IMG/VR virus record: IMGVR_UViG_3300044491_001751
Coordinates: 1 to 53,938 of that record
DNA length: 53,938 nucleotides
Strand: one strand, 5' to 3'
DNA from: a virus
Taxonomy: Duplodnaviria > Caudoviricetes
How positions within the stretch are numbered: the first letter of the stretch is position 1; each line of letters opens with the position of its first letter. A model generated the notes under the pieces. The model was given only the letters and a program-made list of their open reading frames with translations. It made no database searches and was not told where the DNA came from. The translations under genes were made by a program, and so were the position numbers. Below, piece after piece: positions 3,231 through 50,769 of this stretch.

Positions 3231-4288
3231 AAGTTGCCGTCTACTGCATTGCTCTTAACGAGGAGCAGTTTGTCGAAAAATGGTACGAAAGTGCAAAAGA
3301 GGCAGACTACCTCTTAATTGCAGATACAGGTAGTACGGATGGTACCCGTGAAACTGCAATAAAGCTTGGAATCAACGTAATAGACGTAAAAGTGCGTCCT
3401 TGGCGTTTTGACGATGCCCGCAATGCATCACTCGTAGCCATCCCAGAAGACATTGACTACTGTATTGCCCTAGACATGGATGAAATCCTACTCCCTGGGT
3501 GGAAGCAAGAATTAGTAAACGCCCATAAGAATGGCTGGACACGTCCTAGGTATCAATACACATGGAATTGGCTAGACGAGGCGGAAACTGTACCAAGTCT
3601 TCAATATGGTGGAGATAAAATTCACACGCGTAAGGGGTACAGGTGGACACACCCTGTCCACGAGGTCCTAAGAGCCTATGGAGAGACAAAAGAGACTCAG
3701 GGATGGGTTGGGCTGGAGATCCACCACCACCCAGACAATACAAAGTCTCGTGGACAGTATTTTCCGCTGCTAAAGATGGCTGTAGACGAGCAGCCAGACG
3801 ACGACAGAAACGCTTATTATTACGCTAGAGAGCTTTTCTTTCACGGTCTATATGATCAGGCCATTGTCGAGTTTAAACGCCACCTGAGCCTCCCTAGAGC
3901 CACCTGGGCCCCAGAGAGAGCTGCCTCTATGAGGTATCTAGCAAAGATGATACCCGCTGAGCGAGAAAAATGGCTACTAGACGCAATTGCCCAAGCTCCA
4001 GGGCGTAGAGAGGCTTTAGTCGAATTGGCTCAGCACTACTATGAAGAGCAGAACTGGGCTAGATGCTTAGAATATGCCAAAAAGGCTCTAGACATCAAAG
4101 AAAAGCCACTTGACTTCCTTTGCGAAGCTTTTGCTTGGGGTTGCCTCCCGTGGGATTACGCAGCAATTTCGTCATATTATGTCGGAGACAGGAAAAACGC
4201 CCTTATTTACGGAACTAAGGCTTTGGAGCTAGAACCGCAAAATGAGCGGTTGCGAGAAAATATGGCGTATTACGCCAAAAATGATTAG
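3206..4288 (+). CDS. GT2 glycosyltransferase with C-terminal TPR repeats
   Basis: IALNEE, DTGSTDGT, FDDARN, LDMDE, VHE motifs; TPR-like helices in the C-terminal half. Confidence 0.9.
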   Translation: MAKKDQSLKVAVYCIALNEEQFVEKWYESAKEADYLLIADTGSTDGTRETAIKLGINVIDVKVRPWRFDDARNASLVAIPEDIDYCIALDMDEILLPGWKQELVNAHKNGWTRPRYQYTWNWLDEAETVPSLQYGGDKIHTRKGYRWTHPVHEVLRAYGETKETQGWVGLEIHHHPDNTKSRGQYFPLLKMAVDEQPDDDRNAYYYARELFFHGLYDQAIVEFKRHLSLPRATWAPERAASMRYLAKMIPAEREKWLLDAIAQAPGRREALVELAQHYYEEQNWARCLEYAKKALDIKEKPLDFLCEAFAWGCLPWDYAAISSYYVGDRKNALIYGTKALELEPQNERLRENMAYYAKND

Positions 4289-4737
4289 TTTTTGCTTTTT
4301 TGCGCGTGGTAAGCGTCTACAGCATTTGCACTAGTTCTACTCTGCCAAGTAAAGTGACAATCGTCACACCTAACTATGCGCATAGTAGCCCATCGGCCCC
4401 CGTCTGGACGATCGACAGTCGCTGTCTTTAGTTTGTCAGTTTTTGCTCGGCAATAGGGGCATAAAGGAAAACGCTTGTATCGCATTTCTTGCCCTTCCCA
4501 GTTGACAGATAGGGTATTTCTAATTTCTTGATAGTCCAATCCACCCCAAATGCCCCACAGCTGCTTGTTGTCTAGTGCCCATTGCGCACAATCTTTACGT
4601 ACAGGGCAGACACTGCAAAGTTTTTTTGCTTCGTATTGTTGAGCAGGCTTGTTTGCAAAAAAGTTGTCCATCTTGTCGGCGTGCTCTGGCTTGCCGCACT
4701 CTGCATCTTCGTGCCAGTCGGGACTATTAAGAAACAA
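4285..4737 (-). CDS. whiB: WhiB-family transcription factor with extra C-terminal zinc ribbon
   Basis: W....C...FF...AKKLCSVCPVRKDC...WGIWGG; extra CPYC...CDDC; probable TTG start at 4737 behind GGAGG (ORF track starts at 4761). Confidence 0.9.
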   Translation of the reverse strand: MFLNSPDWHEDAECGKPEHADKMDNFFANKPAQQYEAKKLCSVCPVRKDCAQWALDNKQLWGIWGGLDYQEIRNTLSVNWEGQEMRYKRFPLCPYCRAKTDKLKTATVDRPDGGRWATMRIVRCDDCHFTWQSRTSANAVDAYHAQKSKN

Positions 4738-5065
4738 ATGGAACCTCCACAAAAGTGGCATCCCAGTCGTAGAGCTCGTTGTCTAAGTCGCAGTAAACAG
4801 GAAATCTTTCATCGTCGTCTTCAAAGTAATATCCACCTTTGCTGGTCCAACCTAAGTCAATAAGCCGAAAGGCCTCGCCAAGCGAGTCTGCCACGCCTTC
4901 GAGGCGGAGCTGCTTAGCGAGGGCCTTCTTGGCAATCTGATCTTGATCAAGATAGACATGCTCTGTGAGGTAGAAAACTACGGAATCGGAGTGTATTTTT
5001 CTGGGAAAATCGTCGCCTTCCCATACAAGCCAGATTGGCTCTGCGATTGTCTTCTTACGTCTCAC
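4727..5065 (-). CDS. hypothetical protein
   Basis: 112-aa ORF overlapping whiB; GTG start 6 nt downstream of a TAAGTT -10-like box. Confidence 0.7.
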   Translation of the reverse strand: MRRKKTIAEPIWLVWEGDDFPRKIHSDSVVFYLTEHVYLDQDQIAKKALAKQLRLEGVADSLGEAFRLIDLGWTSKGGYYFEDDDERFPVYCDLDNELYDWDATFVEVPFVS

Positions 5066-46993: not shown

Positions 46994-47545
46994 CTATTCT
47001 AGCTCAGACATGCGGCGTAGAGCTGAGACTGGTATTGAATACGTTGCTTTTCCGCCTTCTTCTCCTGTTATGTAGTCTGAGATCATAACCTCGTATGGGT
47101 AGCACCATCCGAGTGCTTCATAGGGTGGGGTCTGATATCCGTTGTCTTTGCTTCTTCTAATTTTAGTTTCTGGGCCACCAACTAAAAGAACATAAGGAGC
47201 TCTATCGTTATCGATGCTACTACTGAGTCTTAGGGTCGGAGTGACTGAATTGCCTCTTGTAAATTTATAGCGGACTTCCCAGTCTCCGACATCTGGCTCT
47301 TGTTTAAAGGTGTTCACGCTAGGGATAAAGTTTTCGTGGGTCCCCAGATACATTTTTGACCAGGCAATTTCGGCTCCAGCAGTGACTGCATGTTGGTGAG
47401 TTTCCCAGATGGCACCTTCGTCGTATCGTCGATTTGCTTCTGGATTACCAAAGTACGGGAACTGTCTAGCAAATCCAATACTCATTGCTAACGCCTCTTC
47501 TCTAGGGGTGAGGCTTACCTTCCATTTGTTATTTTCTTCGCTCAT
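46994..47545 (-). CDS. hypothetical protein, possible PD-(D/E)XK-like fold
   Basis: GAEIAW...EPDVGDWEVRY; probable start ATG 47545 (ORF-track start at 47581 abuts the tmRNA 3' end). Confidence 0.6.
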   Translation of the reverse strand: MSEENNKWKVSLTPREEALAMSIGFARQFPYFGNPEANRRYDEGAIWETHQHAVTAGAEIAWSKMYLGTHENFIPSVNTFKQEPDVGDWEVRYKFTRGNSVTPTLRLSSSIDNDRAPYVLLVGGPETKIRRSKDNGYQTPPYEALGWCYPYEVMISDYITGEEGGKATYSIPVSALRRMSELE

Positions 47546-47582
47546 GGGGAGCATGGTATTAGCTACTAGCCAATTTGTCAAG

Positions 47583-47882
47583 TGGAGCTGGGGGGATTCG
47601 AACCCCCGTCCGATAAGCCATCGTCTGTTCTTCTACGTGCGTAGGCTCTACCAGCCACGGTACTGCGGTTTGCGTTTGCGGTCGCCACCGTAATGCTGTG
47701 TTCTATTTATTTAAACCCTGTGGCGATTAGTTAGAACTACTTCTACCAGAGGGGCTCAGCTAAGCAGCTAGAGCGAATGCAGACTGTGAGTTTGCGTTTA
47801 TTTTTGTTGCCCGATTCAAGAGGTACAGGCTTCTCTGCACGCTTCACCAGATTCAAACATACCGTCGAAACCAGTCAGCCCC
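47583..47882 (-). ncRNA. ssrA: tmRNA, tag peptide (A)ANSQSAFALAA
   Basis: 5' GGGGCTGACTGGTTTCGAC; 3' GACGGGGGTTCGAATCCCCCCAGCTCCA with G3:U wobble; resume context AATAAAC-GCA; tag ORF 47760-47795. Confidence 0.95.
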
Positions 47883-47886
47883 ATAT

Positions 47887-48054
47887 TTAGTTGTCGTTTG
47901 TTACTACAGTTCCTACTTGCTCTAGGTCGGTAACTAGAGCGGCTTCTTCTGCAGTTGCAGTTCCGTTGATAACTTTAGTAGCTAGAGCCAAAGCAGTGTC
48001 AGCGTCGTCTGCAGTTACTTGATACCGCGCACCTGAGGTGATTATGTATTCCAT
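47887..48054 (-). CDS. small hypothetical protein, 55 aa, probably leaderless
   Basis: MEYIITSGARYQVTADDAD...; TGCTATAAT box 6 nt upstream of the ATG at 48054 (the longer ORF-track start lies inside the tRNA). Confidence 0.7.
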   Translation of the reverse strand: MEYIITSGARYQVTADDADTALALATKVINGTATAEEAALVTDLEQVGTVVTNDN

Positions 48055-48074
48055 ACAAAAATTATAGCACCTTG

Positions 48075-48146
48075 CTCTCCCCCGTGGATTCGAACCACGA
48101 ACCATTCGATTAACAGTCGAACGCTCTGCCGTTGAGCTAGAGGAGA
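48075..48146 (-). tRNA. tRNA-Asn(GTT)
   Basis: TCTCCTC/GGGGAGA acceptor, D-arm TAGCTCAACGGCAGAGC, anticodon arm TTCGA-CTGTTAA-TCGAA, GGTTCGAATCC T-arm; CCA not encoded. Confidence 0.95.
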
Positions 48147-48153
48147 TTGATGG

Positions 48154-48288
48154 CTACTTGTTAGTAACCAATCGACGCTTCGCAGCATCGAAAATCTTTG
48201 GACGCTTCTTTCTAGCTTTACCGTTCTTGCGGTCTGCTCCTGAAGTGTCTTTTACAGGAGCTGGAGCTCCACCCTTACCTTTTGCCAT
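48154..48288 (-). CDS. small highly basic protein, 44 aa (not in ORF track)
   Basis: AAGGAGAGG RBS, TGTTATACT box upstream; MAKGKGGAPAPVKDTSGADRKNGKARKKRPKIFDAAKRRLVTNK*. Confidence 0.75.
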   Translation of the reverse strand: MAKGKGGAPAPVKDTSGADRKNGKARKKRPKIFDAAKRRLVTNK

Positions 48289-48313
48289 ACCTCTCCTTAG
48301 ATCAGTAAAAGTA

Positions 48314-48343
48314 TAACACCCCCGTATTTCTACGAGGGTGTTA
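48314..48343 (-). terminator. hairpin terminating the upstream ncRNA
   Basis: TAACACCC-C-CGTA-TTTC-TACG-A-GGGTGTTA; followed on the - strand by TACTTTT. Confidence 0.6.
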
Positions 48344-48348
48344 AGAGT

Positions 48349-48500
48349 GAGTAGGTGGAATGCGTTTTACCACCAAGGCCTGGTTGCTTCGGTCTCTAAA
48401 GCCCGCTACTAAGCCTACCTACAGTTGGGTTACACCCAGACGTTACTCCCTGCAGTGCCTTACCACCCCGTGCAACTTTGAGGTTGTTCAGCCATACTCC
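48349..48500 (-). ncRNA. structured ncRNA, possibly manA-motif-like
   Basis: ORF-free; closing stem GAGTA/TACTC; hairpins CAAC/GTTG, CTGCAG/CTGTAG enclosing TGGGT/ACCCA, GGCTT/AGGCC, GGTGG/CCACC; own promoter and terminator. Confidence 0.6.
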
Positions 48501-48529
48501 AGCTTTTCCGTCGAATCGCTGTTGGTAAT

Positions 48530-48557
48530 AGATTAGCACCTATTCAGTGCCTGTCAA
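48530..48557 (-). promoter_or_regulatory. sigma70/SigA-type promoter for ncRNA
   Basis: TTGACA (48552-48557), 16-nt spacer ending TGC, TAATCT (48530-48535). Confidence 0.7.
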
Positions 48558-48582
48558 GTTATGTTCGCTCAGAGCGAATTTA

Positions 48583-50769
48583 TTATACGTCGAACCTGTC
48601 GTTGTTCATGACCTTCTCCCATGCGGCGATAAAGTCAATGACAAATTGCTGCTGGCCGTCGTCTGAAGCGTAAACTTCAGCGTAGGCGCGGAGAATCGAG
48701 TTAGACGCAAACACCATGTCTGCGCGAGATGCAATCCACTTGACTTCCTGAGTCTTGCGGTCACGTCCCTGATACAGGTTGTCTAGAACTGGACTCCACT
48801 CGGTGTCCATGTCCAAGATGTTCCTAAAGAAGCATGGCTTGAGGACACCTGGCTGAGTTACCAAGTCGGATACAGCGGAGTTTGCGTGACGCACTCCAAG
48901 AGCACGTAGACCGCCGTACAGAGCAACCATCTCTGGAGGGGTTAGGCCTAGGAGAGCTGCCTTGTCGATTAGTAGACGGTCTAGCGAGTCCGCGTACTTC
49001 TTGTGGCTCCAGTTGATAAACGCATCTGCAACTGGGTAGAGGTGGTTGAATGAATCAACGTCTGTCTGCTCCTGAGTTGCATCACCACGTCCGCCTATGA
49101 AGCCAACAACAACTGGAACTCCGCCGTCGTTTGCAGCCTCTTCAACAGCATAAGAACCAGCGAAGACAATCAGGTCAGCCAAGGACATTCCAGACTCTGG
49201 CTGGATCTCCTTTAGCTTCTCGATAGTTGCAGCAACATCAGAGTTGACTGGCCAGCTCTTCTGTGGCTCTAGGGCGATGCGTGCACCATTCGCTCCACCG
49301 CGCTTGTCAGTGTTGCGGTAGGTTGATGCAGACGCCCATGCAGTGCGGATCAAATCAGTGGCTGTTAGTCCAGAGTTGTCCAAAGCAATGCGAGTCATGT
49401 GCTTCTGAAGGATGGTCGGGTGTGAGCTCGAAGGAACTGGGTCCTGCCACAGTAGAACCTCTGACGGAACTTCTGGGCCATGGTAGCGAGCACGTGGCCC
49501 CATGTCGCGGTGGGTCAGCTTGAACCACGCACGAGCGAAGACGTCAGTGAAGTAGTCGAAGTCCTCTAGGAACTTGCGGCAGATGCGGTCATACTCCTCG
49601 TCTCCGAAACGGAGTGCTAGGTCAGTAGTGAGCATCTTTGGAATTACGTCATCTCCGCCGTGGGCGTGAGGTGCCATGTCTCCTGGCTCAATGTTGATTG
49701 GACGCCACTGCTTTGCACCAGCAGGTGACTCTTCCATCTCCCACTCGTACTTATAGATGAGGCGTAGGTAGTCGTTGTCCCAGCGGGTTGGGTGAGGAGT
49801 CCAAGTAACTTCTAGGCCAGAGGAGATAGTGTCGCCTCCGTGTCCAGCTCCCTGAGAGTTGTTCCAACCAAGACCAACGTCAGCTAGGTTGTCATTAGCC
49901 TCTGGCTCTGGACCAACCTGTGCAGCATCGCCAGCACCGTGAGTCTTACCAAACGCGTGTCCACCAGCGATAAGAGCAACAGTCTCCTCGTCGTTCATGG
50001 CCATGCGACCAAAGGTGGTGCGGATGTCAGCGGCAGCAGCCTTAAAGTCTGGGTTGCCATCTGGACCCTCTGGGTTTACGTAGATGAGACCCATCTGCAC
50101 AGCAGCTAGTGGGTCCTCTAGAGTCTCGGCGTCGCGTGACTCGTCGTAACGCTTGTTAGCTAGCCACTCAGTCTCGTTACCCCAGTAGGTGTTGTCTGGC
50201 TCCCAGACGTCTGCACGTCCGCCAGCAAAACCGAAGGTCGGGAATCCCATGTCTTCGAGAGCAACGTTACCTGCAAGAATCATCAGGTCTGCCCAAGAGA
50301 GCTTGCGACCATACTTCTTCTTGACTGGCCACAGTAGACGACGAGCTTTATCTAGGTTTACGTTGTCTGGCCAAGAGTTAAGCGGAGCGAAACGCTGTAG
50401 GCCTTCGCCTCCACCGCCACGTCCATCTGAAACGCGGTAGGTTCCAGCAGCGTGCCATGCCATACGGATAAAGAATGGACCGTAGTGTCCGTAGTCTGCT
50501 GGCCACCAGCTAACAGAAGTCTTCATGACTTCTACAATTTCGTCTTTTACCTCGGAAAGATCTAGTTTGCCAAACTCTTCAACATAGTCGAAGCCCTCTT
50601 CGTAGGGGTCGCTCTTAGGGTTGCCCTTCAGAAGCGGGTCAACGCTAATTTGGTTTGGCCACCAGTCATTGTTGGTTGTGCCCATCTCGGCACTAGCACC
50701 GCCAGCAGTTCCCATTGGCATAGGGCACTTTGCTTCAGCGGAGCTGTCGTTTACGTCGTAGTTACTCAC
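48583..50769 (-). CDS. katG: catalase-peroxidase
   Basis: [23 protein letters not shown] (distal R/W/H), [64 protein letters not shown]; 728 aa, uninterrupted. Confidence 0.98.

Follow-up and report, generated by a model that had tools for sequence, protein, structure and literature searches.

A manA-type structured RNA with its own promoter and terminator-like hairpin in an actinophage

The stretch of DNA analysed here (the window) is a viral record of 53.9 kb, estimated at one third of the phage genome, and carries on its minus strand a manA-type RNA of 177 nucleotides (nt), 48523..48347, flanked by a promoter (TTGACA-N16-TGcTAATCT) and by a hairpin with a U-run. Read 5' to 3' on that strand, the locus consists of the end of a catalase-peroxidase gene (katG), a palindrome, the promoter, the RNA, the hairpin, an open reading frame (ORF) of 44 amino acids (aa), tRNA-Asn, a short ORF, the transfer-messenger RNA (tmRNA), a 195-aa ORF and the large terminase gene. 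The phage belongs with the actinophages, as a preliminary description made from the letters alone had supposed: the window encodes a regulator of the WhiB family, an actinophage hallmark (158 aa, 4288-4761, minus strand, E 1e-17), and the terminase shares 74% identity with its counterpart in Actinomycetia phage DSL-LC01 and 61-65% with the terminases of Microbacterium phages of about 190 kb.

The same description had proposed a structured non-coding RNA with a promoter and terminator of its own and without an ORF. The RNA is real and all of these landmarks were found, the strand being the minus strand: TTGACA and TAATCT stand 16 nt apart, the terminal hairpin appears on the terminator scan at 48343-48314, and the ends of the RNA pair through GAGUA (48499-48495) and UACUC (48353-48349). 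What was said of ORFs has to be qualified, as two mechanical ORFs, one of 47 aa on the minus strand and one of 58 aa on the plus strand, overlap the RNA; the homologues, however, are 175-189 nt long, and their length differences are not multiples of three. The RNA, its helices and its flanking signals are as follows, with helices numbered as in the structure counted below.

48564..48578, no strand assigned: perfect 15-nt palindrome TTCGCTCnGAGCGAA (minus-strand reading TTCGCTCTGAGCGAA, 48578-48564), 6 nt upstream of the -35 hexamer
48552..48557, minus strand: -35 hexamer TTGACA, read in the sequence
48530..48538, minus strand: extended -10 box TGcTAATCT (TAATCT at 48535-48530, after the 16-nt spacer), with 6 nt between it and the start of the RNA
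48347..48523, minus strand: core of the manA-type RNA, from AACAG to CUCAC, resting on the match to the Rfam model RF01745 (51.8 bits, E 5.1e-12), on our own covariance model R1 (162.8 bits) and on covariation
48500..48521, minus strand: 5' hairpin, CAGC/GCUG and UUC/GAA with loop GACG (helix 1)
48495..48499, minus strand: closing helix, 5' strand GAGUA, pairing with 48349-48353
48457..48492, minus strand: P3, with outer GCU/GGC, internal loop UGAACAA / GUAAG, inner helix and 10-nt loop (helices 3 and 4)
48472..48476, minus strand: GUUGC in the P3 loop, 5' side of the long-range pairing (covariation)
48419..48455, minus strand: P4 (CUGCAG/CUGUAG) around two hairpins only, with loops GUAACG and GUA/UGUAA (helix 5)
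48376..48416, minus strand: P8, with a 5-bp outer helix, an asymmetric internal loop and an inner CGG/CCG helix (helix 6)
48383..48387, minus strand: GCAAC, 3' partner in the long-range pairing, within the 3' strand of P8 (covariation)
48354..48374, minus strand: P9, GGUGG/CCACC with the 11-nt loop UAAAACGCAUU (helix 7)
48349..48353, minus strand: closing helix, 3' strand UACUC (helix 2)
48304..48343, minus strand: hairpin resembling an intrinsic terminator, 13 pairs with a loop of 4 and the tail TACUUUUACU (terminator scan; hairpin proper 48343-48314)

Conserved fold and long-range pairing

Homologues of the RNA were collected from three sources: by blastn in 80 terminase-related viral loci, by searching viral contigs for a pattern of 22 letters (19 stretches), and by searching metagenome contigs (46 stretches) and genome contigs (three stretches) for one of 19 letters. 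All three genome stretches, which were chance matches in coding-like DNA, were left out, together with six chance metagenome stretches (L117, L118, L120, L122, L127 and L132) and six copies cut at contig ends; L144, L145 and L118 (same contig as L143) gave no match to R1, our own covariance model. The final set holds 38 distinct sequences, 37 of which were aligned with MAFFT, and the homologues are only about 69% identical in sequence.

RNAalifold predicts 35 pairs on the alignment of 37 sequences, 23 of them with compensatory changes. The structure used for counting also has 35 pairs, made up of 30 of these and the five-pair closing helix, with two loop-loop pairs removed. In the 37 sequences 96.8% of its cells pair, as against 78.7% in shuffles and 34-45% with slid partners; both sides change at 22 of the 35 pairs, and none of 500 shuffles reaches any of the five measures. 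The RNA is a real, conserved and structured RNA gene, and the covariation among homologues by which the preliminary description had proposed to check it is present.

The individual helices contribute to this result in different ways. The 5' hairpin (98.1% paired, both-side changes at three of seven pairs) lies in part within the collecting pattern, and the closing helix (97.3% paired) shows one-side changes only, its invariance being partly due to construction by the same pattern. Both sides change at all six pairs of P4, at four of the five pairs of the outer P8 helix and at four of the five pairs of P9, which is 100% paired; the inner P8 helix is 81.9% paired. For P5 and P6, the two hairpins inside P4, counts on the model-fitted alignment were set aside because subgroups stood one column out of register, and per-sequence folds were used: 35 of 37 sequences give two hairpins for the P4 domain and none gives three, a domain of 37-45 nt being too short for a third. 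A loop-loop covariation between the two P4 hairpins (GC in 23 sequences, AU in 12) consists of two states that follow the clades and was not counted.

An all-against-all scan of the alignment columns brought out a further run of four to five antiparallel pairs in succession. It links the P3 loop to the 3' strand of P8 and in the window joins GUUGC (48476-48472) with GCAAC (48387-48383). In the MAFFT alignment the five pairs are 89.7% paired, each with both-side changes, and 17 letter combinations occur; slid controls give 19-45%, a figure that covers the five pairs and three inner P8 pairs together. Pairing in register extends over at least five of six positions in 31 of 40 full rows, over four of six in four and over two or three of six in five, and these five weak rows form duplexes of 6-9 bp when slid; the copy of Microbacterium phage A3Wally has a duplex of 7 bp. 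In per-sequence shuffles the long-range duplex is not significant alone, the evidence for it being covariation across sequences, and covariation is blind to whether the strands pair within one molecule or between two.

Relation to the manA family

The accessible portions of the literature describe manA from marine metagenomes, T4-like cyanophages and two gamma-proteobacteria, in potential 5' untranslated regions (5' UTRs), as a probable riboswitch with a feature marked 'pseudoknot?' (Weinberg et al. 2010, PMC2864571). There, too, its alignment is given as restored in Rfam 14, with 48 significant pairs by CaCoFold (PMC7779021; also PMC7657543), and the motif is listed as cis-regulatory in the paper on cyanophage S-CREM1 (PMC9964418). 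Our literature search on the manA RNA motif and RF01745 found no actinophage paper among the matches listed, and where manA and actinophages were searched together none of the papers listed contained a manA term.

In order to place the RNA we compared it with the Rfam models using Infernal. The manA model RF01745 matches 48344-48518 on the minus strand over its full length (model positions 1-192 of 192) with 51.8 bits and an E-value of 5.1e-12 for 1.4 kb, or 4.6e-14 over the whole record; none of the other Rfam models matches the RNA stretch, and no tRNA-like model matches the RNA itself. The score lies below the gathering score of the family, 55.2 bits, which is why the default, gathering-mode scan of the whole window missed the match and listed only tmRNA and tRNA; it surfaces only in E-value mode. 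Four of 15 relatives compared with RF01745 exceed the gathering score (L006 with 64.2 bits, L040 with 60.8, L083 with 55.5 and L152 with 66.8), ten of the others score 37-52.6 bits and one has no match at E<=0.01. The clade is thus connected with manA, and the copy in the window lies at its divergent margin. The resemblance that the preliminary description had pointed to is borne out by the model search, and of the two options it offered, a divergent manA-like RNA or a new motif, the first stands and the second falls: the RNA belongs to the known manA family, as a variant that has no P7, and is not a new class.

The clade shares with the Rfam consensus of manA the order of the helices, the 5' hairpin with its GACG loop, the closing helix, the internal loop in P3 (UG-CUGAA-AA / UAAGG, with which its letters agree), the AGGUAG junction, the two-part P8, the P9 hairpin with an 11-nt loop framed by GGUA...UCC, and the setting in phages beside tRNA genes. 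It differs in where it occurs, as known manA RNAs come from cyanophages and gamma-proteobacteria whereas the clade is found in phages of actinobacteria. The P4 domain of the consensus has three hairpins, with loops GUGGUG, GNRA and uaACCA, while the clade has two, the third hairpin (P7) being gone and its model positions aligning to gaps. The P3 loop of the clade is long and pairs with P8, the RNA of the window has its own promoter and terminator, and the complementary loops of the consensus, GUGGUG/ACCA and UaCUguA/uacAguA, are not present. Judged by sequence, GUGGUG and uaACCA would correspond to L5 and L7 of the manA RNAs in a recent cryo-EM preprint (10.64898/2026.07.01.735769), UaCUguA and uacAguA to L8 and L9, and the GNRA loop of the middle hairpin to L6. 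The column scan of our homologue alignment gave no covariation between the L8 and L9 columns, and L7 is absent.

With R1, 14 of the 80 terminase-related loci were found to carry the RNA, as was one further relative (G007, 184 bits), there inside a tRNA array far from the terminase; the model gave no match in five further relatives or in phage DSL-LC01. In A3Wally (L150, MZ150783.1) it matches 83301-83542 with 53.7 bits and an E-value of 6e-20. This clear but divergent copy, with 82 nt extra in the central domain, exactly fills an unannotated gap between a tRNA-Val that ends at 83300 and another that starts at 83547. A weak match of 16.7 bits lies in phage Pumpernickel (L151, NC_073468.1, 83967-84141), also in an unannotated gap of a tRNA array. 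RF01745 gave nothing at E<=1 on these two copies and matched none of DSL-LC01, A3Wally, Pumpernickel, cyanophage S-CAM8 and the complete relative G001 at E<=0.01, a search that yielded no positive anywhere; G001 carries a copy found by R1 although RF01745 gave none. A blastn search of 47500-48700 against 50,697 phage records gave matches in 563, none of which covers 80% of the query, and among the matches listed all fall on tRNA-Asn.

Two routes to one 5' end and the role of the RNA

A TANNNT box ending 6-7 nt before AACAG, the first letters of the RNA, is present in 27 of the 38 distinct homologues (with TGn in 25), and a -35-like hexamer (at least four of six letters, spacing 16-18) in 18. 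It is this conservation, not a promoter scan, that supports the promoter. The other 11 homologues have no -10 box; in these a tRNA-like T-arm and acceptor end run up to AACAG (nine by a simple pattern, two by eye), and ARAGORN calls a tRNA ending 1 nt before AACAG in five of them. Initiation in one group and processing of a tRNA 3' end in the other thus lead to the same first base, as would be expected of a molecule whose ends matter. At the other end, a hairpin with a U-run follows the RNA in 28 of 38 homologues. The hairpin with TACTTTTACT in the window is one of four sites on the terminator scan, where 1.6 are expected, and its stem shows compensatory changes among relatives.

The surroundings of the RNA are far less constant. 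Across 13 related loci, from a sigma-like gene to the terminase, katG, the 44-aa ORF, tRNA-Asn, the small ORF, tmRNA and the 195-aa ORF come and go, and the RNA stays, being 97-100% identical in the closest loci. In one locus (L017) it is identical to that of the window over 173 nt, but the sequence upstream is another one, katG is missing and the hairpin is followed immediately by a tRNA. The element downstream varies between the 44-aa ORF, tRNA-Asn, tRNA-Gly, other ORFs or the terminator only. In many relatives the palindrome TTCGCTCnGAGCGAA is found again at the same site, with changes in its loop and independently of which gene lies upstream. The window has one other exact copy, at the end of an NlpC/P60 ORF (52422-52436), where no promoter of this kind follows; the palindrome is possibly a regulator site or a cassette boundary. 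The word GTGCTANNNT, considered as a general phage promoter word, is not enriched (three matches against eight expected).

RNA libraries offer a further view of the locus. Small shares of a 601-nt stretch around the RNA occur in 20 RNA runs, of which four from four studies were mapped on 47400-49000, the other 16 (shares 0.05-0.19) not being used. Each of the four yields one contig of 151-175 nt with one or two differences, placed on the RNA only (48362-48523; 48359-48504; 48336-48502; 48361-48510). The 44-aa ORF is uncovered in all four and katG in three; one run has katG contigs with 4-8 differences each, and two runs have contigs on relatives of the tmRNA. As one contig extends 13 letters past 48523 into sequence unlike the window, the copy it stems from has another upstream context. 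We count this restriction of the contigs to the RNA as a weak hint that it builds up to higher levels than the genes around it.

With moderate confidence we read the locus as one from which a large aquatic actinophage makes a stable RNA of the manA family, a separate molecule that acts in trans, may self-assemble and forms part of the tRNA/tmRNA module. Host-type RNA polymerase would start at AACAG (48523) from the extended -10 promoter, and the fold is followed by the strong hairpin with its short U-run. Between them, the 177-nt core comprises the 5' hairpin, the closing helix, P3, the two-hairpin P4, P8 and P9, tied together by the 5-bp pairing of the P3 loop with P8. In those relatives in which the RNA abuts the 3' end of a tRNA, trimming of the tRNA would release it. 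Because both routes give the same bounded molecule and the neighbours change freely, the RNA would act as a folded particle of its own rather than as a ligand-sensing leader for one gene; it may also be the first product of a longer transcript that is cut at the 5' end of a tRNA. The term stand-alone RNA, used in the preliminary description, finds support in the conserved promoter and terminator, the changing neighbours and the RNA-restricted contigs, with the qualification that a leaky hairpin allows a longer transcript, as its placing of the RNA at the head of a tRNA/tmRNA cluster had itself implied. The clade offers genetic evidence that the manA family is made as a bounded free RNA, its first base set by a promoter or a tRNA 3' end while the neighbours change, and the copy in the cultured phage A3Wally, which infects a harmless soil bacterium amenable to routine deletion and expression tests, provides a setting in which to examine a manA-type RNA in vivo.

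The main rival is control of read-through, in which the RNA is a cis-acting riboswitch or attenuator (Rfam class 'Cis-reg') whose fold senses a ligand or factor and sets read-through into the 44-aa ORF, tRNA-Asn and beyond. This is how Weinberg et al. 2010 (PMC2864571), as far as their text is accessible, rated manA, as a probable riboswitch in 5' UTRs, and the layout of transcription-terminating riboswitches, a complex fold, then a hairpin with a U-run, then a gene, is also that of the window, where an aptamer-sized fold has a terminator-like hairpin directly after it. The U-run has only 4 U and termination could be partial and tunable, and the downstream tRNA or ORF is without a visible promoter of its own in the window and five relatives. 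In such riboswitches, however, fold and terminator overlap or compete, whereas here the hairpin begins 4-6 nt past the closing helix and shares no bases with it. Since both stand in one consensus fold they do not compete, and we found no conserved alternative pairing. Some relatives have no expression platform at all (11 of 38 are without the promoter and 10 of 38 without the terminator, and these lie flush between tRNAs), the downstream gene is not constant and differs even between near-identical copies, and the RNA-library contigs end within the RNA and hairpin in all four runs. A discrete trans-acting RNA fits these observations better, and we regard read-through control as unlikely. A small but real chance goes to a direct service to the tRNA/tmRNA module without self-assembly, the RNA being an element for processing or a decoy, to which enzymes that mature or cleave tRNAs would bind ('punctuation' of the tRNA array, or a nuclease sponge). 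The company it keeps favours such a role: 14 of 38 homologues have a tRNA that starts at most 80 nt past the core end, five have one that ends 1 nt upstream, the A3Wally copy sits inside a tRNA array, and a phage tmRNA lies beside the RNA in the window and in L004, L006, L040, L082 and L152. Yet no tRNA-like model matches the RNA, it has no known binding partner, and promoter/terminator cassettes may adjoin protein genes only, as in L011, L019 and L021.

We consider it very unlikely that recombination maintains the RNA as a selfish or neutral passenger, carried by a mobile cassette of promoter and terminator. The ends of the cassette (palindrome with promoter, terminator) are indeed conserved while contexts change, and the RNA was not found in two complete relatives, but compensation at 22 of 35 pairs together with the long-range pairing at about 69% identity shows purifying selection on the fold. 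Cassettes of this general kind are reportedly known from T4-like phages as promoter/stem-loop cassettes of the PeSL type, said to have been described by Arbiol et al. in 2010. By description these too are small units bounded by a stem-loop or palindrome with promoter and by a terminator, in a neighbourhood that differs between close relatives; their cargo is a small ORF, whereas here it is a structured RNA. A small protein-coding gene or a chance resemblance, to which the two overlapping mechanical ORFs might point, is hardly conceivable in view of the non-triplet length differences, the concentration of variation in paired columns with compensation, and the Rfam E-value of 5e-12.

ROOL and GOLLD are large, ornate phage-linked RNAs of several hundred nt that are reported to self-assemble into RNA-only multimers. 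The manA-type RNA is like them in being structured, often in phages and next to tRNA genes, and differs from them in size and in its unrelated sequence. For manA itself, the preprint mentioned above describes, in its accessible part, RNAs refolded in vitro that assemble into decamers built from pentamers, into octamers and into a 60-mer cage, with L5-L7' and L8-L9' kissing loops holding them together; another member uses a loop-receptor contact, L6-P6', as well as L5-L7' and L3-L8' kissing loops (10.64898/2026.07.01.735769). The same part is silent on tRNAs and on a function in cells (10.64898/2026.07.01.735769). By homology with these RNAs, the trans-acting RNA proposed here may assemble with copies of itself, the P3-loop/P8 pairing, which invites comparison with the L3-L8' kissing loop of that other solved member, being one possible contact; we consider self-assembly a reasonable extension from the preprint. 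More tentatively, and on balance doubtfully, the P3-loop/P8 pairing might form between molecules, in which case actinophages would make closed RNA-only oligomers in infected cells through interfaces unlike the solved ones, working with the phage tRNA and tmRNA genes, for instance by holding or shielding a host factor. An actinophage branch that has lost one peripheral helix and has a strongly covarying long-range pairing makes the choice between an intramolecular and an intermolecular contact testable, and if the pairing is intermolecular, A3Wally would be a cultured system for what a cage-forming RNA does in vivo.

A number of observations count against a free, trans-acting and possibly self-assembling manA RNA. 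Nothing in the present data shows oligomers, the clade is without P7 and the loop complementarities read from the Rfam consensus, and the reported assemblies, according to the accessible part of the preprint, formed in vitro at about 3 mg/mL RNA and 10 mM Mg2+ (10.64898/2026.07.01.735769). The window copy stays below the manA gathering score, and its single-sequence folding energy is ordinary (z = +0.82, with 161 of 200 shuffles folding at least as well). Invariance near the 5' end is by construction, as the collecting pattern fixes 19-22 letters there and leaves the rest free to vary. The consensus promoter scan did not list the promoter, because TAATCT fits the -10 consensus at only three of six positions. 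In five promoter-type relatives (L017, L103, L108, L110 and L025) the hairpin is followed within a few bases by a tRNA, too close for that tRNA to have a separate promoter, and no separate promoter was seen for the 44-aa ORF of the window either; some transcription must therefore pass the hairpin. The RNA-library contigs show no strand, ends or level, the libraries may contain DNA, and uncovered parts are not taken as silence beyond the weak hint. Finally, since R1 did not find the RNA in two complete relatives of 152 and 154 kb, which are among the five negative ones, it is dispensable for the phage group.

Neighbouring genes and minor observations

The features around the RNA, beyond those listed above, are the following.

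48583-50769, minus strand: catalase-peroxidase ORF, KatG-like, two-domain and full-length (728 aa; Pfam peroxidase, E 1e-66)
48154..48288, minus strand: Lys/Arg-rich ORF of 44 aa with a strong Shine-Dalgarno sequence, directly after the RNA hairpin (ORF list)
48074..48146, minus strand: tRNA-Asn(GUU) (tRNA search and Rfam scan)
47580..47882, minus strand: phage tmRNA with the tag ANSQSAFALAA (tmRNA search and Rfam scan)
46987-45566, minus strand: large terminase (ORF list)

Elsewhere the window encodes a family-A DNA polymerase, an SNF2 helicase and tail proteins. The katG-like ORF is present at 64-97% identity in nine of the 13 related loci and absent from four, and looks like an auxiliary metabolic gene of aquatic actinophages. 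The 44-aa ORF occurs in four of the 13 at varying positions (51-77% identical); it matches no Pfam family, and the protein atlas gave a best score of 0.84 and no family.

Right after tRNA-Asn, a second extended -10 box, TGcTATAAT, stands at 48061-48069 on the minus strand. An ORF of about 55 aa (MEYIITSG..., 47887-48053, minus strand) has its ATG only about 8 nt past this box, so its mRNA may be leaderless; the tmRNA comes next. The start of a mechanical 72-aa ORF at 48105 overlaps tRNA-Asn and is probably wrong.

Two groups of homologues show further tRNA-related features. In L123, L129 and L135, copies that abut a tRNA, another conserved spacer with a hairpin-like stretch lies about 50 nt after the RNA core and before tRNA-Gly, and may be another small structured module. 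In these three and in L097, L101 and L105, the 60 nt upstream of AACAG have an end that resembles a T-arm and acceptor; ARAGORN did not call these stretches as tRNAs, and they may be odd tRNAs or tRNA-like RNAs.

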